A DNA stretch of 64,000 bases from a virus (taxonomy: Duplodnaviria; Heunggongvirae; Uroviricota; Caudoviricetes): positions 64,001 through 128,000 of IMG/VR virus record IMGVR_UViG_3300002834_000024, one strand, 5' to 3'. The notes below the pieces were generated by a model. That model did no database searches. It worked only from the letters and a program-made list of their open reading frames with translations, and had not been told where the DNA came from. Made by a program: the position numbers and the translations under genes. How positions within the stretch are numbered: position 1 is the stretch's first letter; each line of letters starts with the position of its first letter. Shown one piece after another: positions 23,247-56,234 of the stretch.

Positions 23247-23290
23247 CAAAGATAATAATTGTTTTATATACACAATAGATACTGGATGTT
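23247..23290 (-). promoter_or_regulatory. Promoter: AACATCCAGT box + 26 nt + TATCTTTG (-7)
   Basis: One of seven copies of the same architecture. Confidence 0.75.
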
Positions 23291-23292
23291 AA

Positions 23293-23333
23293 AAAAACTC
23301 TAGAAATATTTCAAAAACATTTCTAGAGTTTTT
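23293..23333 (-). terminator. 15-bp perfect hairpin after the SBP gene
   Basis: aaaaactctagaaat / atttctagagttttt. Confidence 0.75.
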
Positions 23334-23354
23334 ACATCATATCACTAATAGATA

Positions 23355-24974
23355 TTATTCAGCAACAAGTTGAAAATCTGTTGTACGATAATTCTTATCT
23401 GGTCCAACACTTCCTGCTGCAATAGCATGTTTACTACCATTTCCTTCAACAATAAATCTTGTTTTAGGGAAACCATGTTGTTTTACAAGATAATCAACAA
23501 CTGATTGCGCACGTCTTTTTGATAAATCTCGATTTAGTTCTGCAGAACCTGTATTATCCGTATTTCCTTCGACCCTAATATAATTTGTGAAATTTTTAGC
23601 AATTTCAACAAATTCGCTATCAATAATATATTGTGCATCACTATTCAAAATAGCACTATTTGTTGCAAATTCAATTACTACCTTTTTATTAGACAAGGCG
23701 GGTGCAGCAATTTCTCTTGCAGTTGGTGCTACATAACTTCTATCTTTTTCAGCACTTTGATCATTTGTTAATTTATGGTTATCCATAAGATATTCAATTA
23801 TTGAAGCATCCATAGTTCTTCCCCATCTTACAGGGCTTTTAACCATACCAACTTCTTCGCTACTATATATTCTTGCCATTCTTGAATATAATTGTTCGTA
23901 TGTAATTCCGTTATAATTCGGATTCAATCCAAAGAAATTAATATTATCGCCAAGTGTTGAAAATCTAAGAACATCTCTTATACTTGAAACAATCTTTCCA
24001 TTATTATCCAATTCACAAATAAATTCTTTATCAACGCCAAATCCTTTTGCAAATGTTTCTGCTGCACCTTTCAAAAATACATCATTTGTTGCTAATTCGA
24101 CATTTGCGTATAAAATAGCTTCTGTTAATTTGACAATTTTTTCCCTATTCTTTTCGATATAACTTTCTTTTGCAAGATAAGCATCTACAATAAGATTAGG
24201 TGCTTGCTTTGTTGAAAAAAATACTTTTGCGCCAGGTATGTTTTTAACCAAATCAACATCATCAGGACTATAAACAAGAGCTGCATTTGCTTGACGAGAT
24301 TTCATTACTTCTGCTGCATCCATACCATTATCAACTTTTGTTAGTTTTCCATCAACAAACCATTCCGCTAAAGTAACATCATTTCCTTTTGCACCACTTG
24401 TTGCCAATACTTCAAGTAAAAGGGAATGACCAGCTTGTCCAAGAGGAAATGCTACTTTTTTCTTTAATAAATCAGCAACACTGTTTATTGTTGCATCAAC
24501 AACCAAAGCATCAGCACCACGAGAACGATTAGCATCAACAAATGCTCTTGTATCTAACATAACACTACCCTCGCCCATCTCAATCGGGCGTACATCAATT
24601 GTCCCAAAAATAACATCAATAAGGCCAGCTTTAAATGCCTCTCTATCATTTTCTACAATTTCAAATTTCAACTTAATACCAAACCTTTTGTAAATTTCTG
24701 AATTTTCATTTGGTTCCATTCCACCATTCAAATACACAATCGGTGCATGACCACCATATGTATCTACACCAATCGTAATATAGTCTTTCGACCCACTTTT
24801 ATTTGTAAAAAGGTTACTTAAAAAATTGCTTGATTTTTCTTTATCAACAGCTTGTGTTACCTCTTTATTTTCTCCTGGCAGTTCTACTTTACCACCACCC
24901 ATTTTAATTAGCATAAACGCTATACCAAGCACTGCTAACGTAATTCCAAAAATTTTTACCCACGGTCTTACCAT
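23355..24974 (-). CDS. ABC substrate-binding protein (NMT1/SsuA-like) fused to an OmpA C-terminal domain
   Basis: N-terminal membrane anchor; SRGADALVV...INSVADL..KKVAF; C-terminal IRVEGNTDNTG...NRDLSKRRAQSVVDYL...YRTTDF. Confidence 0.85.
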   Translation of the reverse strand: MVRPWVKIFGITLAVLGIAFMLIKMGGGKVELPGENKEVTQAVDKEKSSNFLSNLFTNKSGSKDYITIGVDTYGGHAPIVYLNGGMEPNENSEIYKRFGIKLKFEIVENDREAFKAGLIDVIFGTIDVRPIEMGEGSVMLDTRAFVDANRSRGADALVVDATINSVADLLKKKVAFPLGQAGHSLLLEVLATSGAKGNDVTLAEWFVDGKLTKVDNGMDAAEVMKSRQANAALVYSPDDVDLVKNIPGAKVFFSTKQAPNLIVDAYLAKESYIEKNREKIVKLTEAILYANVELATNDVFLKGAAETFAKGFGVDKEFICELDNNGKIVSSIRDVLRFSTLGDNINFFGLNPNYNGITYEQLYSRMARIYSSEEVGMVKSPVRWGRTMDASIIEYLMDNHKLTNDQSAEKDRSYVAPTAREIAAPALSNKKVVIEFATNSAILNSDAQYIIDSEFVEIAKNFTNYIRVEGNTDNTGSAELNRDLSKRRAQSVVDYLVKQHGFPKTRFIVEGNGSKHAIAAGSVGPDKNYRTTDFQLVAE

Positions 24975-25011
24975 AATTTTAAACTTTAATAATGATTAAT
25001 ATTTTTTTTAT

Positions 25012-26118
25012 TTAATTTTGTTCATCAGGAAAAAATCTACTTTTTAACCTTTTTGGCTGTTCTTCATTTGCATAATTAGCCAAAATTGGTTCAGCTTCTC
25101 TACGAGATTGAAATACTTCAATATATGGAGTGTTTATATGATTTTCTATCATTTTAACACTGTTATCACCAAAGTTTTCAAACATTCCATCCAAACCATA
25201 TTGGTCATACTTTGAAATAATTTCACTTGCTTGTTTGGATGTTAGAAGTTTATTCATGTCATACTGATCCATTAAACCGCCAGCAGAATCTATAATAAAT
25301 TCCATTTCACCAATCTTATTGCTCATATCTTTCGCCATGAACTCCATAGCATCCATGAATAATGCAGCCTCATCAGGATCACCTTTTATTACAGACATGA
25401 TACTCTTAAATGTGGCATGTTGTAATTTTATCTGGTCATATTGTTCTGTTCTTATTTCTACCTGAAACTCGGTATCCTGAACAGTAAGATCAGCCATCTC
25501 ATACAATTTGGTTAAAATATCTTGCCATTTATTAGATTGTGCGAGATTTTCTTTGTAAGTATTTATGAGATCAGATAAACTTTTAACCTTATTACCAACA
25601 ACTTGGGCTGCCTTTTCTTTATCTTTACCCTGTGCGATATAGATTTTATATTCCTGAATAGCCGTATCAAATTCGTCAGATCGTTGTTTAAGTTTTCGTT
25701 CAATTTCCTTAATTGAACCTTTTAACTTTCCAAGAAGTTGTTGAATTTTAGTCATCTTTTCTTTTAAAATTACAATTCTTCGTTTTACAATAGCAACAGG
25801 ATTTGTCTGAACAAAAACACCCCACAATTTTCTCATAAACATGAAATAACTAACAGATACCATTCGTCTAATATCCTTATTAGTTAATAACCACAAAATA
25901 CCTGCAATTGCCACACATAATCCAATTAAGGTTAGCAAATTTGATGCAAGTGTTATCAGCCATGGTAAAATTTTATATAATACCATTAAGGCACCAGCTC
26001 CAAGCAAACCAGCAAAAACCATTCCGAGTTTGCCACCTGGTTTTTCCCAATTGCTCATCTTGATTTTATTGTTTGCAATGGGATTTGAAGAAAGATTAAA
26101 AGGAACTAAATCATTCAT
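25012..26118 (-). CDS. Membrane-anchored coiled-coil protein (PspA/IM30-like architecture)
   Basis: Two N-terminal transmembrane helices followed by long heptad-rich helices. Confidence 0.5.
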   Translation of the reverse strand: MNDLVPFNLSSNPIANNKIKMSNWEKPGGKLGMVFAGLLGAGALMVLYKILPWLITLASNLLTLIGLCVAIAGILWLLTNKDIRRMVSVSYFMFMRKLWGVFVQTNPVAIVKRRIVILKEKMTKIQQLLGKLKGSIKEIERKLKQRSDEFDTAIQEYKIYIAQGKDKEKAAQVVGNKVKSLSDLINTYKENLAQSNKWQDILTKLYEMADLTVQDTEFQVEIRTEQYDQIKLQHATFKSIMSVIKGDPDEAALFMDAMEFMAKDMSNKIGEMEFIIDSAGGLMDQYDMNKLLTSKQASEIISKYDQYGLDGMFENFGDNSVKMIENHINTPYIEVFQSRREAEPILANYANEEQPKRLKSRFFPDEQN

Positions 26119-26142
26119 TTGTTTTAATTTTTATTGTTTATA

Positions 26143-26865
26143 CTAATTTACATTTGCTAATGCGTTTAAAATGTTATTTTTATCACCATTCAATAAATCT
26201 TTCATATGATTAATAGTGGCAATCAAATCACTTTCTTTTTTTCTAATATTGACAGATGCACTTTCAACATTATTCTTTATTGTGGAAACTTCTGTTTCTT
26301 TATTTGAAATTTTGGCAAAGATTTCTTCATGTTGTTTTTTTAATTCTATAATTTCATTGTTAATTTCTTGTATTTTGGACAAAGGTATATCAACTTTAAG
26401 TCTTTTTTCTTCTGAAATAATATTCTTTTCAGCATCTTTTTGTTCCATAATAAGTTTCAAGTAATGATCAACTGAACTACTAATAACTGCTTTGTTAAAA
26501 CTTGGAGAATGTGATTTGAGATTAATATAAGCCGCTTTAATTAATTCTTCTTCTTTTGCAGAGGTTAAAATTTCTCTTAATTGATCTACATTCTTTTTTA
26601 AATCCAAATAATTGGTTGTTTTTAACGCACTTTCATCAATTATTTTACATAATTCAGTAAAAATATTCTCATCAATTTCACCATTTACATTAGATGGTGG
26701 TTGAATATTATCATCCACAGGTTGTTTCTTTCTTGGTTGAGAAACAAATTGTGGCTGGTACGCAATTGTAGTATTAACAGGAATACTACTTTCAGTTTTC
26801 TTGGGATTTGATGTTGCTTTATCATCAACAAAAACTGCATTTTTTAAAAATTGACCTAAACCCAT
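26143..26865 (-). CDS. Coiled-coil hypothetical protein, first gene of the transporter operon
   Basis: C-terminal heptad repeats; co-oriented and tightly linked. Confidence 0.55.
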   Translation of the reverse strand: MGLGQFLKNAVFVDDKATSNPKKTESSIPVNTTIAYQPQFVSQPRKKQPVDDNIQPPSNVNGEIDENIFTELCKIIDESALKTTNYLDLKKNVDQLREILTSAKEEELIKAAYINLKSHSPSFNKAVISSSVDHYLKLIMEQKDAEKNIISEEKRLKVDIPLSKIQEINNEIIELKKQHEEIFAKISNKETEVSTIKNNVESASVNIRKKESDLIATINHMKDLLNGDKNNILNALANVN

Positions 26866-26884
26866 TGTGATTTTGTTTAATTAT

Positions 26885-27214
26885 TTAACTATATTTTTCT
26901 TTAAAGATATTCTTTTTTATTTGTAATTTAATAACATATATAATACGCCTTAATAACCAATCTTTTTTATTATTGTATGTTTTTCCACAATATATCCAAC
27001 CTTGATGGAACACAAATTTATTTTTGCCAACTGTTTTATGATCATTTAAAACAAATGCAGGAAATTTACCACTACCAAAACAATATTTACATCGGTCTTT
27101 GCAAGCAACCGAACCACACATATAGTCTTGTTCATTAAATGGACATTCATTTAAGCAATCAAAATCAATTCCATCATCAGTGGTATTATATAATATTTTA
27201 ATAAGTTTCTTCAT
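26885..27214 (-). CDS. Cys-rich hypothetical protein
   Basis: CLNECP, CGSVACKDRCKYC. Confidence 0.55.
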   Translation of the reverse strand: MKKLIKILYNTTDDGIDFDCLNECPFNEQDYMCGSVACKDRCKYCFGSGKFPAFVLNDHKTVGKNKFVFHQGWIYCGKTYNNKKDWLLRRIIYVIKLQIKKNIFKEKYS

Positions 27215-27218
27215 ATTG

Positions 27219-27488
27219 TTAAAGATTTTTAATTACTTTTTCCTTGTATCCGACTAATTGTTTAAATCGTCTTAAATTTCTAAAATCTTCTCCATGATTT
27301 ATATATAGGTAATTAGTACCATGAATACTATGTTGGTTTGTATCATAGAATAAAGAAGTGTCTGTTTCATCAACATAAATTCTTTCTAAATTTATATTTC
27401 TTCCATCATCATTGATTAATACAATGTCATTCATTTTTTCTTTTTCGGACATTTGATCAATTATATCCCTAAGTTCATTCCAAGTCAT
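27219..27488 (-). CDS. Hypothetical protein
   Basis: Tightly packed ORF with ATG start. Confidence 0.55.
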   Translation of the reverse strand: MTWNELRDIIDQMSEKEKMNDIVLINDDGRNINLERIYVDETDTSLFYDTNQHSIHGTNYLYINHGEDFRNLRRFKQLVGYKEKVIKNL

Positions 27489-27490
27489 GA

Positions 27491-27748
27491 TTATTTATTT
27501 TTATTAGTGTTACATTCACAATCTGGATCATGTACTATCCCAAAATCAAAAGAATAAAAATTATTTTTTTTCTTAAATGAAATGTACTTGTGATTTTTAT
27601 ACTCAAAATGATGAGTGGACATTTCTGTTTGGGTATCATAGGTTACAGTTTTTTTATCAAATGCACCATATCCCCATAAACAAAAAACCACAACAATAAT
27701 CATCACTATACCATTAAATACACCACCAAAAACTCGTCCTCGTCTCAT
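27491..27748 (-). CDS. Small single-transmembrane protein
   Basis: N-terminal hydrophobic helix; HKYISF...GIVHDPDCEC. Confidence 0.55.
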   Translation of the reverse strand: MRRGRVFGGVFNGIVMIIVVVFCLWGYGAFDKKTVTYDTQTEMSTHHFEYKNHKYISFKKKNNFYSFDFGIVHDPDCECNTNKNK

Positions 27749-27779
27749 ATAAATTAAAATTAAATTGTTAATAATACAG

Positions 27780-27822
27780 CAAAAATAATAAAACTTAAAT
27801 AAAAAATATTTTACTGGATGTT
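27780..27822 (-). promoter_or_regulatory. Promoter: AACATCCAGT + 25 nt + TATTTTTG
   Basis: Conserved architecture. Confidence 0.75.
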
Positions 27823-28627
27823 AAAATCTGATTTCATTTACAGTTTCACATTCACAGGTAAAAAACTTTATATTTTCTTTATCATATTCTATATTGTGCA
27901 TATGAAAATGACCATAAACCCATGTTAAAATACATTTTTGGTCAGTTATAAGATGATTGTATATCTGTGTCATATTACCTCTTTCAATATTCAAATCTTC
28001 TTCAAGATATGGATCTCTTGCTATCCAGCCTTTAACACCAACCTTTGAGGTTGGAAATATAAAATCAGGGCAAGAATGAGTTGCAACCATATGAATAAAT
28101 GATGGAAATTGTTTATTTATTTCATCTAATTTAAACTCATTATAAACAACATTTTCATTTTCCCAATAAATTGGTCTAATTTCACTTTTAAATGAATGAT
28201 GTTGAAAATTTTTTGACATTTCATTTAATCTATCAAGTCTATCAATGGATATTCCTCCACCAATACATAATATGTTAAATCTGTCATTTAATGTAACAAT
28301 AGTATAATCAGGTATTACATGAATATGTGAAAATTTTTCAAATAGTTTATTTTTTTTCCCATTAAAATATTCCGGCGAATCATGGTTCCCACGAAACATT
28401 ATAATATGATTATTTTGTTTTTTGAACTTAGTATTTAGACGTTTAAATAATTGGAGATAATATTCATCTTTATGAAAACCTATACCACAATCACCTAACA
28501 CAATATTAACAGAGTTTTCAATGAGATAACGTCTGTTAATATTGTATTCTAATGTTTCAAACTTTCCATGAATATCACCTACCACATTCAAGATTTCTAC
28601 ATCACTAAATGTCAAAACATTAACCAT
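27821..28627 (-). CDS. Calcineurin-like metallophosphoesterase
   Basis: GDIHG, GDCG, RGNHD, THS and GHFH motifs. Confidence 0.9.
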   Translation of the reverse strand: MVNVLTFSDVEILNVVGDIHGKFETLEYNINRRYLIENSVNIVLGDCGIGFHKDEYYLQLFKRLNTKFKKQNNHIIMFRGNHDSPEYFNGKKNKLFEKFSHIHVIPDYTIVTLNDRFNILCIGGGISIDRLDRLNEMSKNFQHHSFKSEIRPIYWENENVVYNEFKLDEINKQFPSFIHMVATHSCPDFIFPTSKVGVKGWIARDPYLEEDLNIERGNMTQIYNHLITDQKCILTWVYGHFHMHNIEYDKENIKFFTCECETVNEIRF

Positions 28628-28628
28628 T

Positions 28629-28739
28629 TCAATTAGATGATTGAATGTAAGTATTGTTTCCTCTTTTGTTTATACCAATAAGGTATCCAATGATTAATCC
28701 AATAACAACACCAAAACCAAATAAAGCTACAAATCCCAT
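28629..28739 (-). CDS. Unlisted 36-aa single-transmembrane peptide (MGFVALFGFGVVIGLIIGYLIGINKRGNNTYIQSSN)
   Basis: Translated by hand; fills the gap between co-oriented genes, and its stop lies 1 nt before the next ATG. Confidence 0.65.
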   Translation of the reverse strand: MGFVALFGFGVVIGLIIGYLIGINKRGNNTYIQSSN

Positions 28740-28759
28740 AATTTCTATATATTTAAAAG

Positions 28760-29911
28760 TTAATAATTTCTATATACAATTAATTCATGTGCCTCATGAC
28801 TATATGGAAAATCCATTTCACGTTGCATTTTATCAATTTGTGATGATTGTATTTGACCGTTTCTCCTAATAATATTATTTTCTTTAGAGGTTTCGACATA
28901 CACAATAACAATTTTTGCATTATATTTTTTAAATACTTTGATAGAATTGATAAATTCATCACGATACTTTTTTCTGATATTCAAGTTATCATAAACAAAT
29001 GATTGACAATTTCGACACATTTCTTTCACTTGTTCATTTATAATTCTCGAAACAGCATCTTCCTGATTTTTATCTCCCTTTAATTTACCATCCTTTTCAA
29101 TGTATCCAAGTTGTATTCTTACTAAATCTCTTGAAATTATTGGGTACTCTTTTAGAAATTTACTTGAATATGTGGATTTTCCAGATCCAGCAACTCCGCA
29201 CATAAGATAAACTGTAAAATCAAAATTATGACTATATTGATTTGTTTTTTCATATGTATTAGTGTTATCTTTAAAGTAATTGAATTTTACTTGATCACTA
29301 AAAAATTTATAAGGATTATCAAAACAATCAAGTAATATTGATTTCAATTTTAAATCTTCACACTTTTGAATTTCCAATTCTCTATATGGACCAAGAGCTC
29401 CAGTCCTATCACATTTATCCAAAAGATATAATAATTTACAATTGGAATTATGAGATATTTCAATGATTATTTTTTCAATCAACGAATCATCCTTATCTAT
29501 AAAATGTTTCGGTTTCATATGATATTTAATTAAGGAACATATCATTTCCCGAACTTTATAAGGTTCATCCCAAAGTAAATATCTTGTTATTTTTTCACCA
29601 ACAACAGAATGGTATGGCGCAGAATAGTTTATTCCATCTTCATCCAATTTGTTACATACACCTTTACCAATATCATGAAACAAAGCAGCCCCAACCAAAC
29701 ATAGTTTTTCAAAACTATTTAAGTTGTTCCATTCTGGTAATTTATAAACTTCATTTACAGTTAAAACGGTATGGTTTAAAGAATTACCTTCGGTGTGCCA
29801 ATCAGCATGATAACCACCGCCTTCCAATTTCAAAAATTCAGGCATCTTCATAACTTCAACCCAATTAACTTTGAAGTTTAAATTATCTATTAGTTTATTT
29901 AAAAGTGTCAT
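28760..29911 (-). CDS. HD-domain + P-loop kinase (AAA_33/PNK-like) fusion; start re-assigned to ATG 29911
   Basis: WHTEGNSLNHT...ALFHDIGK (HD); MCGVAGSGKST, ISRD and YDNLN (kinase). Confidence 0.85.
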   Translation of the reverse strand: MTLLNKLIDNLNFKVNWVEVMKMPEFLKLEGGGYHADWHTEGNSLNHTVLTVNEVYKLPEWNNLNSFEKLCLVGAALFHDIGKGVCNKLDEDGINYSAPYHSVVGEKITRYLLWDEPYKVREMICSLIKYHMKPKHFIDKDDSLIEKIIIEISHNSNCKLLYLLDKCDRTGALGPYRELEIQKCEDLKLKSILLDCFDNPYKFFSDQVKFNYFKDNTNTYEKTNQYSHNFDFTVYLMCGVAGSGKSTYSSKFLKEYPIISRDLVRIQLGYIEKDGKLKGDKNQEDAVSRIINEQVKEMCRNCQSFVYDNLNIRKKYRDEFINSIKVFKKYNAKIVIVYVETSKENNIIRRNGQIQSSQIDKMQREMDFPYSHEAHELIVYRNY

Positions 29912-29938
29912 ATCAATAAAATGAAAAATTATATAACT

Positions 29939-29981
29939 CAAAGGTACAAAAATTTAAGTTATATAATTTTTACTGGATGTT
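29939..29981 (-). promoter_or_regulatory. Promoter: AACATCCAGT + 25 nt + TACCTTTG
   Basis: Conserved architecture; overlaps the listed TTG start, which supports the downstream ATG. Confidence 0.75.
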
Positions 29982-29990
29982 AAAAATGTT

Positions 29991-31589: not shown

Positions 31590-31642
31590 AATATTTAAGT
31601 TTAAATGATTTTATATAAAATTACTATTTTTATTTTAAATAC

Positions 31643-33127: not shown

Positions 33128-33212
33128 GTAAATTTTAGTTTATTCAAAATTACCGAAAAAAAGGTTTAATTGAAATTATTTTAAAGCCTATTTATAGTAA
33201 ATAAATCGCCTT

Positions 33213-33584: not shown

Positions 33585-33588
33585 AAAA

Positions 33589-34473
33589 TTATCCAACCTT
33601 TTCTTTTTGATAATTATAATATTCTCGCATTAATTCTAAACTATTTTCAATAATTTGTCTAATTCTTTCTGGAACATATTTAGTTTGCTCTGCGATTTCA
33701 ATTATTGTATGCGCTTTATAACAACCAATTCCAAAATGGAGACGGATAATATTTTCTTCAACTTTGTTTAGAATACATAATAATTTTTCAATATTATCTA
33801 TGTTATATTCTCTGTCAATAGCTTTTTCAAAATCATTATTATAATGATAACGAGTATCAAACTCATTATTAATTTGATAGTTTTCAGTAAATGTATCAGC
33901 AGAATCGTCATCATCCATGTCTATTGAGGACACTGATAAATTATAAACATCCTTTTCATTAAAAATTTCAACATCATATTTTGTACGAAGAATATGAATG
34001 ATTTCATCTGGCGTTGGTTCACGCAATTCTCGTTGCAGAAATTCATTTTTTATCTTTGTCAAAAGATATACTGTCTTATGTAAGTTTGTTTGTGTAATAA
34101 GTGGTTGGTCTATTTGATATTCACGTATTCTTTTTTCAATATAGTGAACTGCAAAGGTAATAAATTTAACACCTTTTTCTAAATCAAAATTATCTATTGC
34201 TTCCATTAATCCAATATTACCTTCATTAATAAAATCAAGTAAATCTTCGTCTTTTCGTATGTATTTTTTGGCAACTGACACAACAAAGCGAAGATTGGAT
34301 TTTATAATTTCATCTCTGACACTTTCATCACCATTCTTTAATCTATTGAATACTTCTATCTCATATTCTCTAGACATTTGTTTATACTTGCGTATATCTG
34401 CATAATACGCATCTATGATCGGTGAGTTTTCGACAAACTTACCAACCCTTTTGACATCTAAATTTCTTTTCAT
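33589..34473 (-). CDS. RNA polymerase sigma factor, RpoD/sigma70-like (no region 1.1)
   Basis: YYADIRKYK, NLRFVVSVAKKY, INEGNIGLMEAIDNFD..KGVKFITFAVHYI, region 4 ERIRQI. Confidence 0.93.
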   Translation of the reverse strand: MKRNLDVKRVGKFVENSPIIDAYYADIRKYKQMSREYEIEVFNRLKNGDESVRDEIIKSNLRFVVSVAKKYIRKDEDLLDFINEGNIGLMEAIDNFDLEKGVKFITFAVHYIEKRIREYQIDQPLITQTNLHKTVYLLTKIKNEFLQRELREPTPDEIIHILRTKYDVEIFNEKDVYNLSVSSIDMDDDDSADTFTENYQINNEFDTRYHYNNDFEKAIDREYNIDNIEKLLCILNKVEENIIRLHFGIGCYKAHTIIEIAEQTKYVPERIRQIIENSLELMREYYNYQKEKVG

Positions 34474-34515: not shown

Positions 34516-34558
34516 CAAAGATAATATATTTAAAACAAAAGTGCTTATGCTGGATGTT
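34516..34558 (-). promoter_or_regulatory. Promoter of the sigma gene: AACATCCAGC + 25 nt + TATCTTTG
   Basis: Conserved architecture with one mismatch. Confidence 0.72.
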
Positions 34559-34910
34559 AATATTTTAAATTATCTAAAACAGATTTTTTAGTATGATGTT
34601 CATAAAAAAATGTTGTTATTGTATAACATTCCACTGTTCCATCATCATTAGCATCCACTTCTGAATATATCTCATATAAGATGTGAAATATATCTCTATA
34701 TGATAATATTCGTTCAGGACATTTTTTACAACATTTTTTGCAATCTAATAATTTAGATGCAAATAATTTTATAAAATATTTTTTTTCTTTCGTTGTCAAT
34801 GGGTGCGAAGTATCACAATCTGACTTTACATTTTCAAAATATAATGAAAGTGTTGATTGTAATACTTCACTGTTAATTTTTACTTCTTCATTTAGCCACG
34901 CACCACCCAT
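34557..34910 (-). CDS. Hypothetical protein
   Basis: Tightly packed ORF. Confidence 0.5.
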   Translation of the reverse strand: MGGAWLNEEVKINSEVLQSTLSLYFENVKSDCDTSHPLTTKEKKYFIKLFASKLLDCKKCCKKCPERILSYRDIFHILYEIYSEVDANDDGTVECYTITTFFYEHHTKKSVLDNLKY

Positions 34911-36974: not shown

Positions 36975-37352
36975 TTATTGTTGAGTTTGTGAAAAACTTT
37001 CATATTGCCATAATCCAGGTTCTTTGTCTTTTCTTTTATAAATACCAACCTTAACACCATTTACGGCGTTGGTCATAACAATACTTATTATATCATTCAA
37101 ATTATTAATAATATAATTGTAAGTATTCCACGCTTTATCTTCTAATTCGTTATTCCAAATACGTCCATCAAATGATTTTTCAGTATCCTTGATGTGATTA
37201 TCATATTTACCCCACACCATCATAATGGTAGATAAAACATCAGATGTATAAAATAAATCATTGGTTAATATATCAACACCGCCGTTTATATTATTTATTT
37301 TAATTTGTCCTAAAACATTTAAAATATCTTCGGTAATTTCAATTTTTATCAT
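36975..37352 (-). CDS. Hypothetical protein
   Basis: Tightly packed ORF. Confidence 0.55.
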   Translation of the reverse strand: MIKIEITEDILNVLGQIKINNINGGVDILTNDLFYTSDVLSTIMMVWGKYDNHIKDTEKSFDGRIWNNELEDKAWNTYNYIINNLNDIISIVMTNAVNGVKVGIYKRKDKEPGLWQYESFSQTQQ

Positions 37353-37410
37353 TACGGAACAATTTTATTCAAATATAAAAATAATTTTTAACAATTCAAA
37401 GTTTATTTAC

Positions 37411-39039: not shown

Positions 39040-39083
39040 CAAATATAATTATTTTAAATTATAATATTAACACACTGAATGTT
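39040..39083 (-). promoter_or_regulatory. dnaJ promoter: AACATTCAGT + 26 nt + TATATTTG
   Basis: Conserved architecture with one mismatch. Confidence 0.68.
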
Positions 39084-39091
39084 AAAAACAA

Positions 39092-41589: not shown

Positions 41590-41624
41590 TTTTTTTAATT
41601 AATATTATTTTTTATTATTCATTA

Positions 41625-41632
41625 CAAATATA
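41625..41632 (-). promoter_or_regulatory. Bacteroidota-type -7 element TATATTTG upstream of hsp20-dnaK
   Basis: Matches TAnnTTTG. Confidence 0.6.
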
Positions 41633-42586: not shown

Positions 42587-42588
42587 TT

Positions 42589-45500: not shown

Positions 45501-45543
45501 CAAAAATATAACAAGTTTTTTAAAAAACCAAATACTGGATGTT
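45501..45543 (-). promoter_or_regulatory. Promoter: AACATCCAGT box, TTTG (-33), 20 nt, TATTTTTG (-7)
   Basis: Full Bacteroidota -33/-7 consensus plus the conserved upstream box. Confidence 0.82.
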
Positions 45544-45550
45544 AAAAAAT

Positions 45551-45575: not shown

Positions 45576-45621
45576 CAACTCCTTCAACACATGGTTGATG
45601 AGATATACATAAATATATGTA

Positions 45622-46407: not shown

Positions 46408-46576
46408 AAAATATATTTTATTATTATCTTATTTAAAAATAAAAAGTCACTGGATAACCTCTGTTATCATTCAATGACTTTTCATAATATATGTAAATGT
46501 TCTTTCTATTAGCATACATTTATAAATATTACAAAATATTTTTTACTATCATATTTATAGTAAATAACAATCTACA

Positions 46577-47101: not shown

Positions 47102-47142
47102 AAAAAAGCACAGTTACCAACAATAGGAAACTGTGCTTTTTT
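47102..47142. terminator. Bidirectional terminator
   Basis: aaaaaagcacagtt / aactgtgctttttt. Confidence 0.85.
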
Positions 47143-47158
47143 ATCGTAACTGACTCAT

Positions 47159-48040: not shown

Positions 48041-48190
48041 AATTAAAAAATTTATTAAATATTATTAATTATCCTCACATTATTGTAACCCTATTTTACT
48101 AAAATTACTCAAGAGCCATATAGACTCAATGCGAAAATAGATTTTTTCAATATACTATAAATATACAGATATTATTTTTTATTTCAAGAA

Positions 48191-49120: not shown

Positions 49121-49181
49121 AATAGTTAATTATTACATATAAATATATTGACTTCTATTTATAAGAAAAATATAGAATAGT

Positions 49182-51026
49182 ATGGGTTGCTGCGATAATA
49201 ACTGTAACAAGAATATAAATTTCTGTGTTGGTCCACTGAATGGTGATGAAGATTTTGGAACATTAACAGCTTCGGATGGTATTTACACTTCAAAAATATA
49301 TGATGCCTGTGGTAATTTAAGAATTGATTTTGGGGGGCCAAATTGTGATGGCGTACAAGATTGTGGTGATATTGTTCGTGATTGTGGTGGCGAGGAAATC
49401 CAAGTAGTTGCTTTAATCGAAAAGGCAACTGGTTCAGTCATTCCATTTATAGGGTGCGATCAAATTAATGCAATTAGGAGAGCTGGAAATGGTGCTTGTT
49501 GGCAAGTTAGAACCATAGATGGTAGAAGATTAAACCTAAATAGTATTACATGTTGTAAAAAAGTGTGTGAAGATTTACCAACAATTATTGAGGGAGGACT
49601 TGTTGTAAATGGTGATTTAGAAGTAAATGATATTACTGCTAATGATATTAATGCAAAGACAATTACAGCAGAAGAATTTATTGGTAATGGTTGTGGTATA
49701 ACAAATACTGATAATCAAGAAGTTGAACATTTTTATCATGATGTTGATAATGATTTGCTTGTACTGACTACTGTTAATACAAAGAATTGTCCAAATATGC
49801 CTGATACACATAAGTTATGGTCTATTAATACAGAACCATTTACACATAATACTAAAAATGAGTTTTTCGGTTTTGTTCCACCTGGTTCTGACAATTTGGT
49901 ACTTCGAGATACTGATGGAGATGAATTATCAGTAGATTTAAACAAATATAATACTTACATTGCAGATGGTTGGTGTAGTAATGATGGAATTATAACATTA
50001 GAATATAATCCCGAATCACCATTATATCCAGATAAACAAGTTATTGTTGATATTTCAAATGCTATTCACACAATAGAAACTGCTGAATATGATCCATGTA
50101 AAGGTGAAATGTTATTGTGTCATGATAATGGCGAGTGTGTGTTGATGGATAATTTACCAATAAATGTTGATATTGCAGGTGAAGTTACCTTGAAACCAGA
50201 GTGGTCTGGAAAAGTATTTTATCATATTCGTTCAAACGTAATTATGGTATCTGTCAATGTAGAATTATCCCAATTTACACAATTTCCTCCTGGTAATTTT
50301 ATGCCTGTTGAATTGGGAAGATTACCAGTAAAACTATTTGACTATATTGACAATGATAATTTAGCAGTTGATACCTATACATACAAATATTTGGTTAGTC
50401 ATTCTTCAAAATCAATGGGATTTATTAACCATGTACAGTTAGGTATTTCGATTGATGGTATAATGCGAATTACACAATGGCAAGTTCCAGAAAGAATACA
50501 GGATAGTTTTTGTTTAGTTATTAGTGAAATTGATAAGAGTGTAACACAAAATCTTTGTCCAACACCAGTAGTTCCGCCAACATTCACTGTCAGATACCAT
50601 AGTAATAATAGTTTAATGGAAGTTATTACTGTTACTGTTACTGATGATAGATATTTAATATCACAAAATACATTTGTATATGCACATTGGGATTTCCTAC
50701 TTTGGAATACAATGCCAGATAGAAGTGGAAATTCATATAAACCAAATTATTATATAAAAATGACTGGCGATATTGATTTATATGCAATTTGGAAACAAGT
50801 AATTTTTATCGTAACATATGATGCAAACAATGGAACTGGTGAATTTTTACAATTTGAGTTCTATCCTGGTGCAGTCGTTTTAAATAGTCTATTCCAAAGA
50901 CCATTAAATACAACATTTACATTTATTGAATGGAATACAGAAATTGATGGTAGTGGTACAACTTATTTACCAGGAAGTTTACTATATGTAGCAAAAGATA
51001 TAACATTATATTCAATTTGGGGATAA
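49182..51026 (+). CDS. Putative tail/fibre structural protein with two C-terminal InlB B-repeats
   Basis: TVRYHSNN...F..WNT.PD.SG.SY....DIDLYAIW occurs twice; late motif at 49155. Confidence 0.65.
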   Translation: MGCCDNNCNKNINFCVGPLNGDEDFGTLTASDGIYTSKIYDACGNLRIDFGGPNCDGVQDCGDIVRDCGGEEIQVVALIEKATGSVIPFIGCDQINAIRRAGNGACWQVRTIDGRRLNLNSITCCKKVCEDLPTIIEGGLVVNGDLEVNDITANDINAKTITAEEFIGNGCGITNTDNQEVEHFYHDVDNDLLVLTTVNTKNCPNMPDTHKLWSINTEPFTHNTKNEFFGFVPPGSDNLVLRDTDGDELSVDLNKYNTYIADGWCSNDGIITLEYNPESPLYPDKQVIVDISNAIHTIETAEYDPCKGEMLLCHDNGECVLMDNLPINVDIAGEVTLKPEWSGKVFYHIRSNVIMVSVNVELSQFTQFPPGNFMPVELGRLPVKLFDYIDNDNLAVDTYTYKYLVSHSSKSMGFINHVQLGISIDGIMRITQWQVPERIQDSFCLVISEIDKSVTQNLCPTPVVPPTFTVRYHSNNSLMEVITVTVTDDRYLISQNTFVYAHWDFLLWNTMPDRSGNSYKPNYYIKMTGDIDLYAIWKQVIFIVTYDANNGTGEFLQFEFYPGAVVLNSLFQRPLNTTFTFIEWNTEIDGSGTTYLPGSLLYVAKDITLYSIWG

Positions 51027-51045
51027 TAAAATAATAAAAAAAGGT

Positions 51046-52029
51046 ATGATTTTTCATAACATTTTTGTAAGAAAAAACAAATATAAAGGAAATATGTTCT
51101 TTATGCGTTTCCAAAATACAACTGGAAGTGCTGTTACAATCAATACATTGAGATACTTAATCAATGATTCATATTCCCCAACCAGACGATTATTAACAGC
51201 AGTTGTTGAGCGATCTGGTGGTGTTGATAATGTTTATTCTGGTGGAACTATAAATGATTTTATTGTCGCAAATGGTGAATCATGTGTTTTTAGAATGACA
51301 TGGGATGGTGGAATGTACAGTCTTCAAGGACATACTTCTATTAATTCAAATTCGTACAAAGATATTGTTAGGAGTGCTGGTTGTGAAATAAGGGGGTATG
51401 ATAATGTTCCAAATTATTTTATGCGATCTTTATTTCAAAATTGTGTAAATTATAATCAACAACCTGGCGATATATTTGATACAAGCCAATGGTATCCAAC
51501 CAGTATTGGGGATGATTTCATGTATAGAACATGGAGTGAATGTTCATCATTAGCAAACCCTGTAACATTAAATACAACAAACTGGAATATAACAGGATCA
51601 ATTGGTCAAGGTTTTCTTACACAAACTTGGTTTTATTGTACATCTCTATTAAATTCTGTTGCACCAGATACAAGTAATTGGACAGTTGGACCATCACTTG
51701 GTAATTATTTTATGTATTCTACATGGACTAATTGTCCATCATTAATGAGTGTTGTTTTACCTGACACAACAAATTGGAATGTTACTTCTGTTGGTAGTAC
51801 TTTTATGTCACAAACACTTACGAGCTCTTTTTTATCCACAGGTATTGGAACAACTTGTGAATTAGGCGGTAATCTTTATGTTAGTTTTCCATCTCTAACT
51901 TGGCCCAGTTTGGGGATTACAAATAGTAGAATACAAAATATTAAAGTTGATGCCGCTTTAATACCAACATATCAATCAAGTTCAGCTTGGAGCAGTATAA
52001 CTCCAAGTAGTAAATTCATTGCTAGATAA
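51046..52029 (+). CDS. BspA/LRR-like repeat protein, paralog A
   Basis: ~29-aa repeats PDTSNW...F...TW..C.SL; C-cap IKVDAALIPTYQSSSAWS. Confidence 0.65.
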   Translation: MIFHNIFVRKNKYKGNMFFMRFQNTTGSAVTINTLRYLINDSYSPTRRLLTAVVERSGGVDNVYSGGTINDFIVANGESCVFRMTWDGGMYSLQGHTSINSNSYKDIVRSAGCEIRGYDNVPNYFMRSLFQNCVNYNQQPGDIFDTSQWYPTSIGDDFMYRTWSECSSLANPVTLNTTNWNITGSIGQGFLTQTWFYCTSLLNSVAPDTSNWTVGPSLGNYFMYSTWTNCPSLMSVVLPDTTNWNVTSVGSTFMSQTLTSSFLSTGIGTTCELGGNLYVSFPSLTWPSLGITNSRIQNIKVDAALIPTYQSSSAWSSITPSSKFIAR

Positions 52030-52053
52030 TTATGTAAAAAAAAAGAATGTAAT

Positions 52054-53598
52054 ATGATAATTAAAACATATTTTGATAAAAGTAATACAATTGTTAAAGA
52101 CTCAAATATAAACTATGGGTTAAACCCAATTACAACAATTTTCTATGGGTATACAGGGTATTCTCGGTATATGTTTCATTTTTCTTTTGATTACATAAAA
52201 CAATTATTAACAGATCAGACATTTCCTGATATATTCAAATTAAAACATAAATTAAAACTATTTAATGCAGGTGATATAGATTTTAAATGGATGTTTGATC
52301 CATGCTGGACACTGGAAAATAAGGTTGCTGATAGAGCGAGTTCTTTTGATTTAATTCTATTTAGAATACCACAAGCATGGGATCAAGGAAAGGGTTATGA
52401 TAATCTTGTAAATACTACCTTTACATTTGATGAATTTCAAAGTTGTGAAGGAAGTAACTGGTATCACAGAAAATCATTAGTACAATGGGGCAGTAGTCAG
52501 TTGGGAAATCATTCTCATAAAAACAGTGATCCTTATGCCGGAATTGTAAATGGAATCTATTGTAATAAATATTTACAAGACCAATATAGAATATTTTTAA
52601 ATGGTGGGAAATCAGTTATATTAAGGCACCAACATTTTGATTTAGGTAGTGAAAATATTGAAATTGACATAACTGATATTATTAATCGTGCAATATTAGT
52701 TGAAGGTGGCGAACCTAATCATGGATATTGTCTTGCATTTGATCCATTCTTGGAAATAAAAAAAGCAAATCCAATTCAATCTATTAATTTTTTTACAGAA
52801 AAAACATCAACATGGTTTGAACCATATCTTGAAACTTCTTATGATGAAGATATACATGATAATAGACAAGATATGTTTCTGGATGTACCACGTAGATTAT
52901 ATTTTTACAGTAATGTTGGTGGAGTTCCAACAAATCTTAACCAATTGCCAAGTGTTAAAATTACTGGTAATTTTGAAAATGGTGAAGAAATTGAAATTGT
53001 ACCAGAAGTAAAACAAGCCACAAGAGGTGTTTATTTTACAGAAGTAATGATACAATCTGATGATAGTAATGGTAATGAATTAGTACCAAATAGAATGTTA
53101 TTTGATACATGGTCTAATCTTGAATATTATAATGAAAGATTTGATAAAACTGTCAAAATGAAAGATCAAACATTGGAATTTACAACAAAAGATTCAAGTG
53201 AATTTAATCTTTCTGGTGATAGTGATTTCTTACCAAGACAATATTCACCAACTATATATGGTATCAAGTATGATGAAAAAATACAAAGAGATGAAGGATT
53301 TAGAAAAGTATATGTTGAATGTTCAATACCATTTACAGTACAACAATCTGAATTAGTTGATGATTTATATTACATGATTTTTGTTAAAGAGGGGGATAAA
53401 ATAATCAATTGTTTTTCCGAATGGCAACCAATAAACAAAACATTCAATACAAACTATTTTATGTTCGACAGTAGAACATTTTTACCAAGAACATATTATT
53501 TGGATGTGATTACAAGATCCAATATGGAAACAAAAAGACATGCTAATTTGGTTAAATTTGAAATAGTTAATATTGACAAAGATGGGTACTACAACTAA
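52054..53598 (+). CDS. Putative structural (baseplate-region) protein
   Basis: Large beta-rich ORF within a late structural cluster; no specific motif recognised. Confidence 0.5.
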   Translation: MIIKTYFDKSNTIVKDSNINYGLNPITTIFYGYTGYSRYMFHFSFDYIKQLLTDQTFPDIFKLKHKLKLFNAGDIDFKWMFDPCWTLENKVADRASSFDLILFRIPQAWDQGKGYDNLVNTTFTFDEFQSCEGSNWYHRKSLVQWGSSQLGNHSHKNSDPYAGIVNGIYCNKYLQDQYRIFLNGGKSVILRHQHFDLGSENIEIDITDIINRAILVEGGEPNHGYCLAFDPFLEIKKANPIQSINFFTEKTSTWFEPYLETSYDEDIHDNRQDMFLDVPRRLYFYSNVGGVPTNLNQLPSVKITGNFENGEEIEIVPEVKQATRGVYFTEVMIQSDDSNGNELVPNRMLFDTWSNLEYYNERFDKTVKMKDQTLEFTTKDSSEFNLSGDSDFLPRQYSPTIYGIKYDEKIQRDEGFRKVYVECSIPFTVQQSELVDDLYYMIFVKEGDKIINCFSEWQPINKTFNTNYFMFDSRTFLPRTYYLDVITRSNMETKRHANLVKFEIVNIDKDGYYN

Positions 53599-54262
53599 AA
53601 GAATAAAAATAACTGAAAACCAATTATCAATGCTTGTTAATGAATTAATGAAAGTTGGTGATACACCTCGTGAACAATTTTTAAATTATTTAGATAAAAT
53701 TGGTAAACCAGGCAGATTAACTGGTACTGGTAATATTGAAGAATTGTATCAAAATGCAATTCAAGGTGGGTTAAGTAATTTTATAAAAAGAAATACAGAT
53801 GATCCAAAAGTTACTTATACAAAAGAAGATATTGAAGATTTAGAAACCGAATTTTATGATGAACATGGTGAAATTCTTCAAAAAATATCAGTTGATAAGG
53901 CAAGAAACCTAATATATGTTTATAGAGGTTTATCATTACCAAAACAAATTGATAACTATTATGAAGAATTAACTAAATATTTTGATGGACTTGGTTTACC
54001 ATGGGGTGTTGATTATGAAGCAGCCATTCCTTATGGTGGGGATTTAAGTGGCGATATTGTAACATTATGTGGAAAAGTATCACCAGATAGTATAGATTGG
54101 GAATATACAATTTCAATTGCTGCTGATGTAAAAGAAAATGAATTAAGATTACTAAAAAACAAACCAGTTGAAATTTATAAAATTGTTACTTCAATTGGTG
54201 TTTCACTTCCATTAAAGAAACCTATTATTGTTTCGACTGGTAATTCAACAAAGTGGGATTGA
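53582..54262 (+). CDS. Putative ADP-ribosyltransferase-fold protein, paralog B (start re-assigned to ATG 53582)
   Basis: YVYRGL, LPWGVDY, KENEL; aligns by eye end to end with 48191-49120; KITENQL leader. Confidence 0.55.
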   Translation: MGTTTKRIKITENQLSMLVNELMKVGDTPREQFLNYLDKIGKPGRLTGTGNIEELYQNAIQGGLSNFIKRNTDDPKVTYTKEDIEDLETEFYDEHGEILQKISVDKARNLIYVYRGLSLPKQIDNYYEELTKYFDGLGLPWGVDYEAAIPYGGDLSGDIVTLCGKVSPDSIDWEYTISIAADVKENELRLLKNKPVEIYKIVTSIGVSLPLKKPIIVSTGNSTKWD

Positions 54263-54308
54263 TTTAATCAAAAAAAAAAACAGTTATTTATTTGAAAAGA
54301 TAATTACT

Positions 54309-55466
54309 ATGTTAAATGACTCACTTTTTATAAGAAAAACAACCAGTAAAGAATCCATGTTTTATATGAGATTCTATAATCAAACTGGAACCATTGTTAC
54401 AGTAAGTGGATTAAATACATTATTTACAAATCCAACAGGTTCGCCAACGTTAACCAGTGCTGTTGTTGAACGGGCTGGCGGTGTTATAACTAATGTTTTG
54501 GCTGGTGGAAGTTCGATAAATAATTTTACTGTTACTAATGGAGAATCTTGTGTGTTTAGGATGACATGGATTAATGGAATGTATCCATTAGCAGGTAATA
54601 CCCCAGTTACTTATCAGAATATTGTTCGTAGTGCGGGATATAGACTTGTTGGGAGTTATAATGTTCCAACATCTTTTATGGCATATCTTTTTTATAATTG
54701 TATAAATTACAATCAGCAAGTTGGTGATGTTTTTGATGTAAGTGGATGGACACCAACATCTATAGGAAATACATTTATGTATAATACGTGGTATACTTGT
54801 ACATCATTAACTAATGCTGCAGTTCCTAATACAAGTCATTGGAATATAACAACAATTGGAACTTTATTTTTAGGACATTGTTGGAGAGGTTGTACATCAT
54901 TAGTAACTGCTGTTGTACCTGACACATCAAATTGGAGTGTAACAACATTTAACAATGATTTTATGGGATATACATGGTATAATTGTACATCATTGGTAAA
55001 TAGTGCTGTCCCTGATACATCAAATTGGAGACCAATAAGAATGTGGGCTACATTTTTAGATTCAACCTGGTATAATTGTTCATCAATGGTACATTGTGTA
55101 TCACCAGATACATCTAATTGGAGTATAACAACTATTGATGGTTATTGGTTATATGCTACATGGTGGAATTGTTCATCAATGGTAACTTGTGTTGCACCAG
55201 ATTCAACCTTATGGAATGTTGGGGGAACACCAAGTATATTTGTAAATATGGCTTGGGGTTCTGGGGCATTTTCAGCAAATACATCACTTCAACGAGAATT
55301 AACATTGAAAGGAAGTATATATATACAAAAAGCACTTTATGTAAATAGTGGCGGTCTTGATAATGCTCGTATAAGTAATGTTAAAGTGGATACTGGATTA
55401 ATACCAAATTTCCAAGCCAGTACATATTGGTCTAATATAGATGATAATAAATTTATAAGTTGGTAA
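54309..55466 (+). CDS. BspA/LRR-like repeat protein, paralog B (start re-assigned to ATG 54309)
   Basis: Same N-terminus (F.RK......MFYMRF), PDTSNW repeats and C-cap as 51046-52029. Confidence 0.65.
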   Translation: MLNDSLFIRKTTSKESMFYMRFYNQTGTIVTVSGLNTLFTNPTGSPTLTSAVVERAGGVITNVLAGGSSINNFTVTNGESCVFRMTWINGMYPLAGNTPVTYQNIVRSAGYRLVGSYNVPTSFMAYLFYNCINYNQQVGDVFDVSGWTPTSIGNTFMYNTWYTCTSLTNAAVPNTSHWNITTIGTLFLGHCWRGCTSLVTAVVPDTSNWSVTTFNNDFMGYTWYNCTSLVNSAVPDTSNWRPIRMWATFLDSTWYNCSSMVHCVSPDTSNWSITTIDGYWLYATWWNCSSMVTCVAPDSTLWNVGGTPSIFVNMAWGSGAFSANTSLQRELTLKGSIYIQKALYVNSGGLDNARISNVKVDTGLIPNFQASTYWSNIDDNKFISW

Positions 55467-55467
55467 T

Positions 55468-56187
55468 ATGAAGAAAATAATTATAACAGAAAATCAATTT
55501 AATATTATAAAAGGTAATATAATAGTTGAAAATAATTGGTTACAAAATCAAAATGGTGTTAATTATATTTTTAAAGAATCAGTTAAACCAAAAATAAACT
55601 CAAATTGGAAAAGGGTTGTTATTGAGAAATCCCCATATGAAAAAATAAATTGGGTTGAATTATTACCAAATGGAAAAGAAACAGTAAAAATAAGACAAGT
55701 TATATCAAAAGATAAAAATGGGAAAACAAGTAGTGTGTATTATAAAGAATATGATACAGGATTAATAACTAGAATGAGTAATCATTGGAGTATTTACATT
55801 TTAAAAAATTATCAACTTAAAGATTTTCCTACAATAATGAGAGATACTTTTGTAAATTTAATATGGGGACCATTTCTATCTATTAAAGCCAATGCAAATT
55901 ACAATTTATCACTTAATCCATTGTGGGGTGACAAACTAATTAGTTCAGATGTAAAAGATATAGTCAAAAAAGAAAAACCAGGTAGGGATTTTTATGTTTT
56001 ACCAAGAAACACATTAAAACTTGCTGAAAAGGTTACTTTAACAGGAAGTATAATGCAACCTAAAAATGATAGATTTGACTTAATTGAACATTTAATTCAA
56101 AATGAAAATTCTTTTGTATTAAATGAACAAGAAGAAAATAATATTATTGATGAAAAATTTGTAAGTTGGATAATTCAAAACGCCTGA
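55468..56187 (+). CDS. Hypothetical protein with leader motif (MKKIIITENQF...IIVE)
   Basis: Leader motif; internal RMSNHW. Confidence 0.6.
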   Translation: MKKIIITENQFNIIKGNIIVENNWLQNQNGVNYIFKESVKPKINSNWKRVVIEKSPYEKINWVELLPNGKETVKIRQVISKDKNGKTSSVYYKEYDTGLITRMSNHWSIYILKNYQLKDFPTIMRDTFVNLIWGPFLSIKANANYNLSLNPLWGDKLISSDVKDIVKKEKPGRDFYVLPRNTLKLAEKVTLTGSIMQPKNDRFDLIEHLIQNENSFVLNEQEENNIIDEKFVSWIIQNA

Positions 56188-56191
56188 TTTT

Positions 56192-56234
56192 AACATCCAG
56201 TAGAATTTATCTTATTTAAAATTATGTATTTTTG
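56192..56234 (+). promoter_or_regulatory. Promoter: AACATCCAGT + 25 nt + TATTTTTG
   Basis: The only plus-strand copy of the conserved architecture. Confidence 0.78.

Follow-up and report, generated by a model that had tools for sequence, protein, structure and literature searches.

A recurrent upstream box and a Bacteroidota -7 element as a candidate promoter class for pre-late genes in a termite-gut jumbo phage

What kind of promoter is formed when a short sequence box recurs upstream of phage genes at a fixed distance from a Bacteroidota -7 element, and what reads the box? The question is raised by a stretch of 64,000 nt (hereafter, the window) that spans bases 64001-128000 of a 274,786-bp virus record of the Caudoviricetes (IMG/VR IMGVR_UViG_3300002834_000024; 29% G+C; CheckV completeness 74%), here called G000. 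Bacteroidota promoters are unusual in having a strong -7 and a weak -33 element and, to our knowledge, the transcription programmes of phages that infect Bacteroidota are almost unstudied. The canonical promoter of this phylum, read by sigma-ABfr, consists of TTTG at -33 and TAnnTTTG at -7, as given in the part of PMC7366714 that cites Bayley 2000 and Vingadassalom 2005. In the phage, TAnnTTTG is preceded by the box and mostly lacks the -33 element. We give about even chances to the reading that box and TAnnTTTG together form the standard promoter of pre-late (early and middle) genes, in which the box docks a lineage-specific candidate factor beside region 4 of sigma. The box is probably not a -35 element for a phage sigma.

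Architecture, distribution and gene set of the box promoters

The box is a 13-mer, TTAACATCCAGTA, with an invariant 11-mer core, TTAACATCCAG. Seven copies lie in the window (Table 1): five exact 13-mers, four on the minus and one on the plus strand, one copy with a single mismatch, and one with two. All seven are intergenic, aimed at the next gene, and followed by a TAnnTTTG -7 element. The gap between the end of the 13-mer and TAnnTTTG is 24 nt in five copies and 25 nt in two, equivalent to 26-27 nt from the end of the core. The next ATG, counting open reading frames (ORFs) of at least 40 residues, is found 31-50 nt past the T of the -7 element. An earlier sequence-only reading of the window had claimed seven boxes, each before TAnnTTTG. 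All seven exist, at positions 1-2 nt from those it gave, and its gap of 25-26 nt is one too many. Its target genes agree with the Pfam matches, namely an ABC module with IF-1, an HD-kinase with a phosphoesterase, a sigma70, dnaJ-Nudix, and NAD salvage, along with a tiny acidic protein. Near-matches to the box at 1532, 12679, 13503, 20326, 39936, and 62315 are attributed to chance, as they are located in coding sequence and have no -7 element.

The sequence-only reading also proposed a genome-wide motif scan, which yields 26 exact copies of the core in the 274,786-bp genome. Only about 0.17 copies are expected from the base composition, thus excluding chance. All 26 are intergenic, and 25 of them have TAnnTTTG at +26/27. 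In the left 110 kb the boxes lie on the minus strand, and from 120 kb onwards most lie on the plus strand; everywhere they are co-oriented with the genes. With 25 of 26 copies in register, the proposed phage promoter class, in which a box precedes the Bacteroidota -7 element at a set distance, is borne out. A strong terminator hairpin with a T-run directly precedes the box in 8 of the 26 genome copies and in three of the seven window copies.

The box heads about 26 units genome-wide. Besides the genes of the window, these units contain MetK together with a radical-SAM gene, a UvrD helicase, a primase-like gene, a SAM lyase, a DUF932 protein, a ParB-HTH protein, and many small ORFs. Two tRNA arrays (11 and 12 genes) are headed by box promoters at G000:215064 and G000:218144 (L245:7064 and L245:10144). 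The tRNA locus comprises 24 tRNA genes in total, and its first array begins 10 nt past the -7 element. The regulon had been described as one of takeover and counter-defence genes. Such genes are indeed included, but the description is too narrow since tRNA arrays, MetK, UvrD and others are headed in the same way.

Enrichment of k-mers upstream of genes gives only two strong signals, the box and CTATTTAT(A). The latter is located 25-30 nt before the ATG of structural and late genes, in place of the box. It occurs in 21 upstream regions of G000 (28-fold enrichment) and is unchanged in a 367-kb relative, G001, where it occurs in 48; a late-promoter reading fits this distribution. Because box units hold tRNA arrays, chaperones, genes of NAD and SAM metabolism, helicases, and small ORFs, and structural genes carry CTATTTAT(A), the box appears to mark essentially the non-late gene set.

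For promoter numbering, the TA of TAnnTTTG is taken as -12/-11, which is supported by leaderless-looking promoters in G001 and other relatives. In these, the ATG is only 4-7 nt past the -7/-10 element (L053 ~850-895; G001:123760, 20085, and 286299). The box then extends from about -49 to -39 and is centred at about -44. A logo of 71 box promoters, those of this phage plus 46 unique instances from near relatives at 70-80% nt identity, is strongly informative only in two blocks, (T)TTTAACATCCAG(T/A)A and TAnnTTTG-TA-n-TA. The one other signal is weak: a TAnnTA sub-element, present in 20 of the 71, precedes the -7 element by 14 nt.

The usual -33 TTG is absent. It is found in 7 of the 71 promoters, compared with 3.9 +/- 1.9 after shuffling of the spacers, and the box is therefore taken to replace the -33 contact. 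The copy before the NAD salvage unit is among the few that also carry TTTG at -33. TAnnTTTG without a box shows no enrichment on the sense strand upstream of genes. The box itself is asymmetric, with four invariant G/C positions, no A-tract, and no A/T-richness. An UP element is an A/T-rich stretch at -40 to -60 to which the alpha C-terminal domain binds; the box agrees with it in position but not in composition. A -35 element would be 16-18 nt (19-21 nt in Bacteroidota notation) from the downstream element, and the distance is 26-27 nt in G000 and near relatives. TTAACA was considered as a TTGACA-like -35 element and rejected. It is 31-32 nt from the -7 element; relative to the weak TAnnTA sub-element its spacing is 17 nt, but that sub-element is present in only the 20 promoters mentioned.

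A handful of canonical TTG-N18/20-TAnnTTTG promoters exist in the phage, before Hsp20-Hsp70, FKBP, and a few genes of unknown function. ATGTCAT-type repeats upstream of the Hsp20 promoter recur in the phage and in the relatives L279 and L281, and they may be an operator. In L279:6998-7069 and L281:6958-7029, a tRNA-Gln gene lies between the counterpart of the canonical promoter at 37363-37370 and the orthologue of ORF 36975-37352. This tRNA is missing at window ~37353-37362, where only its first bases (gttccgta) seem to be left; ARAGORN detects no tRNA in the window.

Table 1. Promoter features, the units that they head, and sigma-factor genes. Positions refer to the window unless prefixed with G000.
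Feature	Position	Strand	Remarks
Box TTAACATCCAGTA	23280..23292	-	directly after strong terminator hairpin and T-run (~23295-23333)
-7 element TATCTTTG	23247..23254	-	25 nt past 13-mer box; ATG 23223
Unit: permease, ABC ATPase, ..., IF-1	23223 down to 19636	-	Pfam
Box TTAACATCCAGTA	27812..27824	-	
-7 element TATTTTTG	27780..27787	-	24 nt past box; ATG 27748
Unit: small ORFs, coiled-coil proteins, NMT1-OmpA fusion	27748 down to 23355	-	
Box TTAACATCCAGTA	29971..29983	-	orthologous promoter in relative L053 retains box
-7 element TACCTTTG	29939..29946	-	24 nt past box; ATG 29911
Genes: HD + AAA_33 kinase; Metallophos phosphoesterase	29911-28760; 28627-27821	-	Pfam
Box TTAACATCCAGCA	34548..34560	-	core exact, 13-mer with one mismatch (...CAGCA); heads sigA
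-7 element TATCTTTG	34516..34523	-	24 nt past box; ATG 34473
Degenerate box TTAACATTCAGTG	39073..39085	-	two mismatches in 13-mer, one in 11-mer core; terminator hairpin precedes
-7 element TATATTTG	39040..39047	-	25 nt past box; ATG 39014
Genes: dnaJ; Nudix	39014-37926; 37929-37411	-	Pfam
Box TTAACATCCAGTA	45533..45545	-	terminator hairpin precedes; orthologous promoter in L035 retains box
-7 element TATTTTTG	45501..45508	-	24 nt past box; ATG 45468
NAD salvage unit: 178-aa ORF, NAMPT, Nudix-fusion gene		-	Pfam
Box TTAACATCCAGTA	56190..56202	+	heads 49-aa acidic ORF (56259-56408, pI 4.1)
-7 element TATTTTTG	56227..56234	+	24 nt past box; ATG 56259
CTATTTAT(A)	25-30 nt before ATGs 2907(-), 10444(+), 14251(+), 33213(+), 46577(+), 49120(-), 49182(+)		
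Box-less host-type promoter TTTG-N18-TATATTTG	41618-41625	-	Hsp20 (41589-41125), Hsp70 (41104-39149)
Box-less host-type promoter TTTG-N19-TATATTTG	37363-37370	-	125-aa ORF 37352-36975
sigA	33589-34473	-	294 aa, RpoD/RpoS-like, regions 1.2 to 4.2; recognition helix VPERIRQI
sigB	G000:201390-202133	+	247 aa, regions 2 and 4
sigC	58296-59171	-	291 aa, region 2 only; minus-strand block without recognisable box, -7 or late motif

Variation of the box among related phages

DNA of the phage is found in two termite-gut metagenome runs, one of them perhaps its source, and a 347-kb contig that encodes the same sigA protein is present in the protein database. Many termite-gut contigs with the box/-7 pattern emerged from a metagenome scan. 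In coding DNA they are 67-82% identical to G000, and the 46 promoters that these near relatives add have the same box. Arrays of box promoters occur among them, the densest being 13 copies within an 8-kb run of small ORFs (L016). Orthologous promoters retain box and -7 element, and their flanks can no longer be aligned. The spacers differ among all instances, and this scrambling indicates that the invariance of the box reflects selection and not recent duplication or gene conversion.

Relatives with increasingly divergent sigA show how the box varies. At 74% sigA identity (L281) the box is still TTAACATCCAG. At 69%, in L279 and L287 (from one sample), it is TTAACATCCGG in five of five promoters, always at +27. 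A third form, TTAACATCCAC (CCAC), is seen once, in L280 (58%). In L278 (43%) the box is again TTAACATCCGG, so this CCGG variant occupies six of six promoters of two sister lineages (four in L279, one each in L287 and L278). The more distant L283 and L284 (39-40%) have no invariant box, and canonical TTG-N19/20-TAnnTTTG promoters precede their Hsp70, DnaJ, and IF3-sigA genes. Their use of the canonical form points to Bacteroidota as hosts and to the box as a derived replacement of the -33 element.

The relative G001 is complete, and its helicase is 60% identical to that of G000. The box does not occur in it, even if one mismatch is tolerated. Its place is taken by aTAgCATCGGAaTAATAT, which G001 carries at 73 intergenic sites with TTATATT always at +14. 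In three of its promoters the ATG is just 12-15 nt past the T of TATATT, which is therefore the -10 element; the same three promoters rule out TATAAT at +27 in that role. TATAA is found 11 nt past the T of TATATT, equal to the spacing in G000, where TAtAa begins 11 nt past the T of TAnnTTTG. The G001 box thus spans -37 to -28, i.e. the -35 position (GCATCG-N17-TATATT, a 17-nt spacer), and it is 11-12 bp, or one helical turn, nearer to the -10 element than the box of G000. G001 box promoters cluster in small-ORF arrays next to the terminal repeat. Since the two phages share the late motif CTATTTAT(A), only the presumptive pre-late class has diverged; comparison of the two genomes indicates that this divergence is lineage-specific, genome-wide, and in concert.

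A palindrome, (AT)ACTCAAATGAGT(AT), with exact copies of 12-16 nt, was observed in some of the relatives. G001 has 17 copies (e.g. 333795, 338577, and 362522), located just upstream of box promoters; others are at L016:2521, 4138, and 6143 and at L033:2698. Twice in L016 the palindrome lies inside the spacer between box and -7 element. It does not occur in the 275 kb of this phage. The palindrome may serve a dimeric regulator as its operator, or it may form a short stem-loop.

Database searches indicate that the promoter class is phage-specific. Only three single matches to the exact box pattern, at chance level, were found in IMG/VR. Among the GTDB matches listed, bacterial genomes have only single copies at chance level, and no host regulon is seen. 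The exception with multiple copies is a phage contig set, JAIRTE01, mis-binned as a 'Mycoplasmataceae' metagenome-assembled genome. Thus, among the matches listed in the GTDB and metagenome scans, multi-copy boxes are confined to phage-like contigs. No close relatives of the phage were found among INPHARED phages, and no close relatives of sigA in IMG/VR. For a 7-kb and a 1.8-kb stretch of the phage, no RNA run was among the matches listed.

Candidate readers of the box

The favoured reading may be set out as follows. TAnnTTTG, followed by TAnTA around the presumed start site, is the -7 element of the Bacteroidota primary-sigma type, presumably read by a sigma-A-type region 2 on host core RNA polymerase (RNAP). 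At the onset of infection the sigma would be that of the host, and later it could possibly be the RpoD-like sigA of the phage, which is one candidate for reading the -7 element. The box, at about -49 to -39, occupies the place of the proximal UP subsite and of class-II or lambda-cI-type activators, immediately upstream of sigma region 4. A sequence-specific monomeric protein would dock there and recruit or stabilise RNAP via sigma region 4 or the alpha C-terminal domain. Because the specificity differs between phage lineages, this putative reader is most likely phage-encoded, and it may be made very early or delivered with the virion. The outcome would be a class of promoters with no counterpart in the host genome.

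Several points weigh against this reading. The variant box of G001 is exactly at the -35 position, as an element read by sigma would be. A reader made by the phage needs a bootstrap, either basal host transcription or virion delivery, because nearly all non-late units, including that of sigA, are box-driven. Different hosts, rather than phage proteins, could in principle be behind the lineage variants. Domain searches for a reader in the 275 kb of this record, which is 74% complete, gave no match for MotA_activ, MotCF, Trans_reg_C, HTH_3, or GerE. Recognisable specific helix-turn-helix (HTH) domains are limited to those in region 4 of sigA and of sigB and to a single one of ParB type, and this scarcity of other HTH domains raises the prior for involvement of a sigma. 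Sigma70_r4_2 is likewise unmatched in the genome, and the small proteins beside sigA and in box units have no Pfam matches.

A more far-reaching form of the docking model, which we entertain tentatively, is an orthogonal system on host core RNAP. It would combine the phage RpoD-like sigma with a box-binding adaptor from outside the MotA, OmpR/PhoB, HTH_3, and GerE families, the adaptor being virion-delivered or bootstrapped from basal host transcription. Such promoters would be invisible to the host. Specificity (CCAG, CCGG, CCAC, CGGA) and docking position (-44 or -33, a helical turn apart) would drift among sister lineages, and dozens of promoters would change in step.

It is unlikely that a phage sigma reads the box directly, with region 4 of sigA or sigB recognising it as a displaced or extended -35 element and region 2 recognising TAnnTTTG. 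G000 encodes three sigma-70-family proteins, of which only sigA and sigB have a region 4 (Table 1), and these are almost the sole recognisable specific DNA-binding domains in the genome. The 17-nt spacer between box and TATATT in G001 would also suit a sigma. All three sigmas have orthologues in G001, which also encodes a second sigA paralogue whose recognition helix has diverged strongly. The sigB of G001 is altered at the residue corresponding to sigma-70 R588. The sigmas evolve fast, with 36-40% identity between G000 and G001 compared with 60% for the helicase. However, the end of the box core and the -10-like TA are 26-27 nt apart in this phage, which is 10-11 bp beyond the reach of a holoenzyme. 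Core RNAP fixes the distance between regions 2 and 4, and we know of no sigma-70-family holoenzyme that spans the distance seen here.

Nor do the sigmas covary with the box. The sigA recognition helix is (V/T)(P/S/T)ERIRQI in the CCAG, CCGG, and G001 lineages and ENIRQI in P0005, the lone sequence of the CCAC lineage, and changes in the first HTH helix do not follow those of the box. A correspondence between the box and the sigA residue equivalent to sigma-70 E574 (I, S, Y, or D) fails, as the two CCGG lineages have S and Y. Covariation with sigB fails as well, since the CCAG phage does not differ from the CCGG lineage in the sigB HTH. Furthermore, the sigA gene is box-driven in all box-bearing lineages (L281, L279, L280, L278, and this phage), and thus sigA is not the sole trigger; in box-less relatives, sigA is under a canonical host promoter. 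The sequence-only reading had offered two alternatives, an activator site or an extended element for the phage sigma70. The spacing, the unchanged ERIRQI helix (of the primary-sigma type), and the box-driven sigA gene disfavour the second, and a docking or activator site is favoured.

That a host component reads the box seems improbable to us. On this explanation the alpha C-terminal domain would recognise an unusually specific UP-like element, or some host factor would bind, and the promoters would be plain early promoters usable as soon as the DNA enters. The box does coincide with the proximal UP subsite. Dependence of almost every non-late unit, including sigA, on one promoter type resembles the early promoters of T4-type and SPO1-type phages, and the massing of G001 box promoters in small-ORF arrays by the terminal repeat is in keeping with it. 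Early promoters of T4-type phages (PeSLs) are likewise far more conserved than host promoters (PMC4122927). Against a host component, four invariant G/C positions and the lack of an A-tract are unlike UP elements. Three uniform variants (CCAG, CCGG, and CCAC) are found in closely related phages from similar termite-gut samples, and the different box and position in G001 would need matching changes in a highly conserved host protein. Among the GTDB matches listed, no bacterial genome exceeds a chance single copy.

It is very improbable that the box is kept for a role other than initiation, such as methylation, restriction avoidance, packaging, or a recombination handle of mobile PeSL-like terminator-promoter cassettes: terminator hairpins precede some copies, relatives have arrays of box promoters as in PeSL regions, and shuffling is proposed in the PeSL literature (PMC2839356, PMC4122927), but homologous recombination needs more than 11-13 bp of identity, and promoter function is indicated by the lost -33 element, by boxes that always share the orientation of the genes, and by the rigid 26/27-nt register; shuffling would add to this function and not supplant it.

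Some features of the sigmas and of one atypical box are worth recording. In region 2.3, sigA has H-Y in place of the W433-W434 pair of primary sigmas, and K in place of sigma-70 Q437; its reading of the -10 element or melting of DNA may differ from those of the host sigma. The region-2-only sigC is likely a late sigma of the gp55 type. The only box without a -7 element on its own strand, G000:248818-248830, is the last of three TTTTAACA repeats (248790-248830) with a 10-bp period. Viewed from the other strand, it is inverted and lies exactly 26 nt upstream of a canonical TTG-N20-TATATTTG promoter of a basic 143-residue protein; the spacer of this promoter is conserved in two relatives. The protein was considered as an autoregulated reader and rejected. 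Orthologous promoters of L285 and L286 do not have the inverted box, and a confident AlphaFold 2 (AF2) model of the protein (predicted local distance difference test, pLDDT, 86) has no DNA-binding-fold match in the PDB.

Known promoter systems and meaning of the new class

T4 middle promoters consist of a MotA box centred at -30 and a sigma-70 -10 element, and are used together with AsiA (sigma appropriation). The phage promoters are like these in that a phage-specific, asymmetric box of ~9-11 bp supplants the host -35/-33 element, the host-type -10/-7 element is retained, and pre-late genes are concerned, as in a T4-like myovirus. In contrast, the phage box is centred at about -44, the class covers almost all non-late genes and is not clearly 'middle', and no MotA_activ or MotCF match exists in the phage (PF09114 and PF09158 have none at E <= 1 in the 275 kb; AsiA was not searched for).

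Activators and UP elements provide a second comparison. Lambda cI is centred at -42 at PRM, and the alpha C-terminal domain contacts -46 to -38. Like class-II activator sites and the proximal UP subsite, the phage box is immediately upstream of sigma region 4, and the G001 box, one helical turn off, is on the same DNA face. Unlike them, it is asymmetric, as for a monomer, and is not A/T-rich, and no homologous regulator was found. Middle promoters can also be read by phage sigmas, e.g. SPO1 gp28. The phage has its own sigma-70-family factors, and the G001 box with its spacer to the -10-like hexamer has the corresponding layout, but a box spaced by 26-27 nt, as in this phage, could not serve as a -35 element. 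With sigma-ABfr promoters of the host, the phage class shares a -7 element that is perfect in all but one of the exact copies. The full canonical form is retained at the Hsp20-Hsp70 unit, at FKBP, and at the orthologous units of more distant relatives. It differs from them in the missing -33 TTG and in the extra invariant upstream box, which is not known from host promoters.

In the PeSL/PmSL cassettes of T4-type phages (Arbiol 2010, PMC2839356; Comeau 2014, PMC4122927), a reiterated promoter that often abuts a terminator stem-loop precedes small variable ORFs and auxiliary genes, and the promoter sequence differs between phage pairs. The phage promoters are similar in being reiterated, in the kinds of genes that they head, and in their variation between phages, and a stem-loop accompanies about a third of them. 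However, PeSL promoters are ordinary sigma-70 promoters of the form -35/N17/-10 (PMC4122927), whereas those of the phage have no -33 element and place their specificity in a box one helical turn further upstream. By analogy, then, the class would work like T4 middle or other activator-dependent phage promoters and be organised like PeSL cassettes. The position of the box and the lack of MotA genes set it apart from the former, and the missing host -35/N17/-10 promoter from the latter.

No published description of this promoter class was found in the literature. New here are the lineage-uniform variants of the box, its one-turn shift in G001, the canonical promoters of the outgroup, and the negative covariation for both sigmas. 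In practice, box and CTATTTAT(A) provide an annotation rule by which pre-late and late genes of these uncultured jumbo phages can be told apart. A large phage lineage has swapped the weak -33 contact for a highly specific box, and where sister lineages differ in the box, they do so in all promoters at once. Were the reader a phage protein, the phage would offer a natural and compact route to host-orthogonal promoter classes, of use for synthetic biology in gut Bacteroides. The co-evolution of a DNA-binding specificity with dozens of sites could then also be studied in a clean system.

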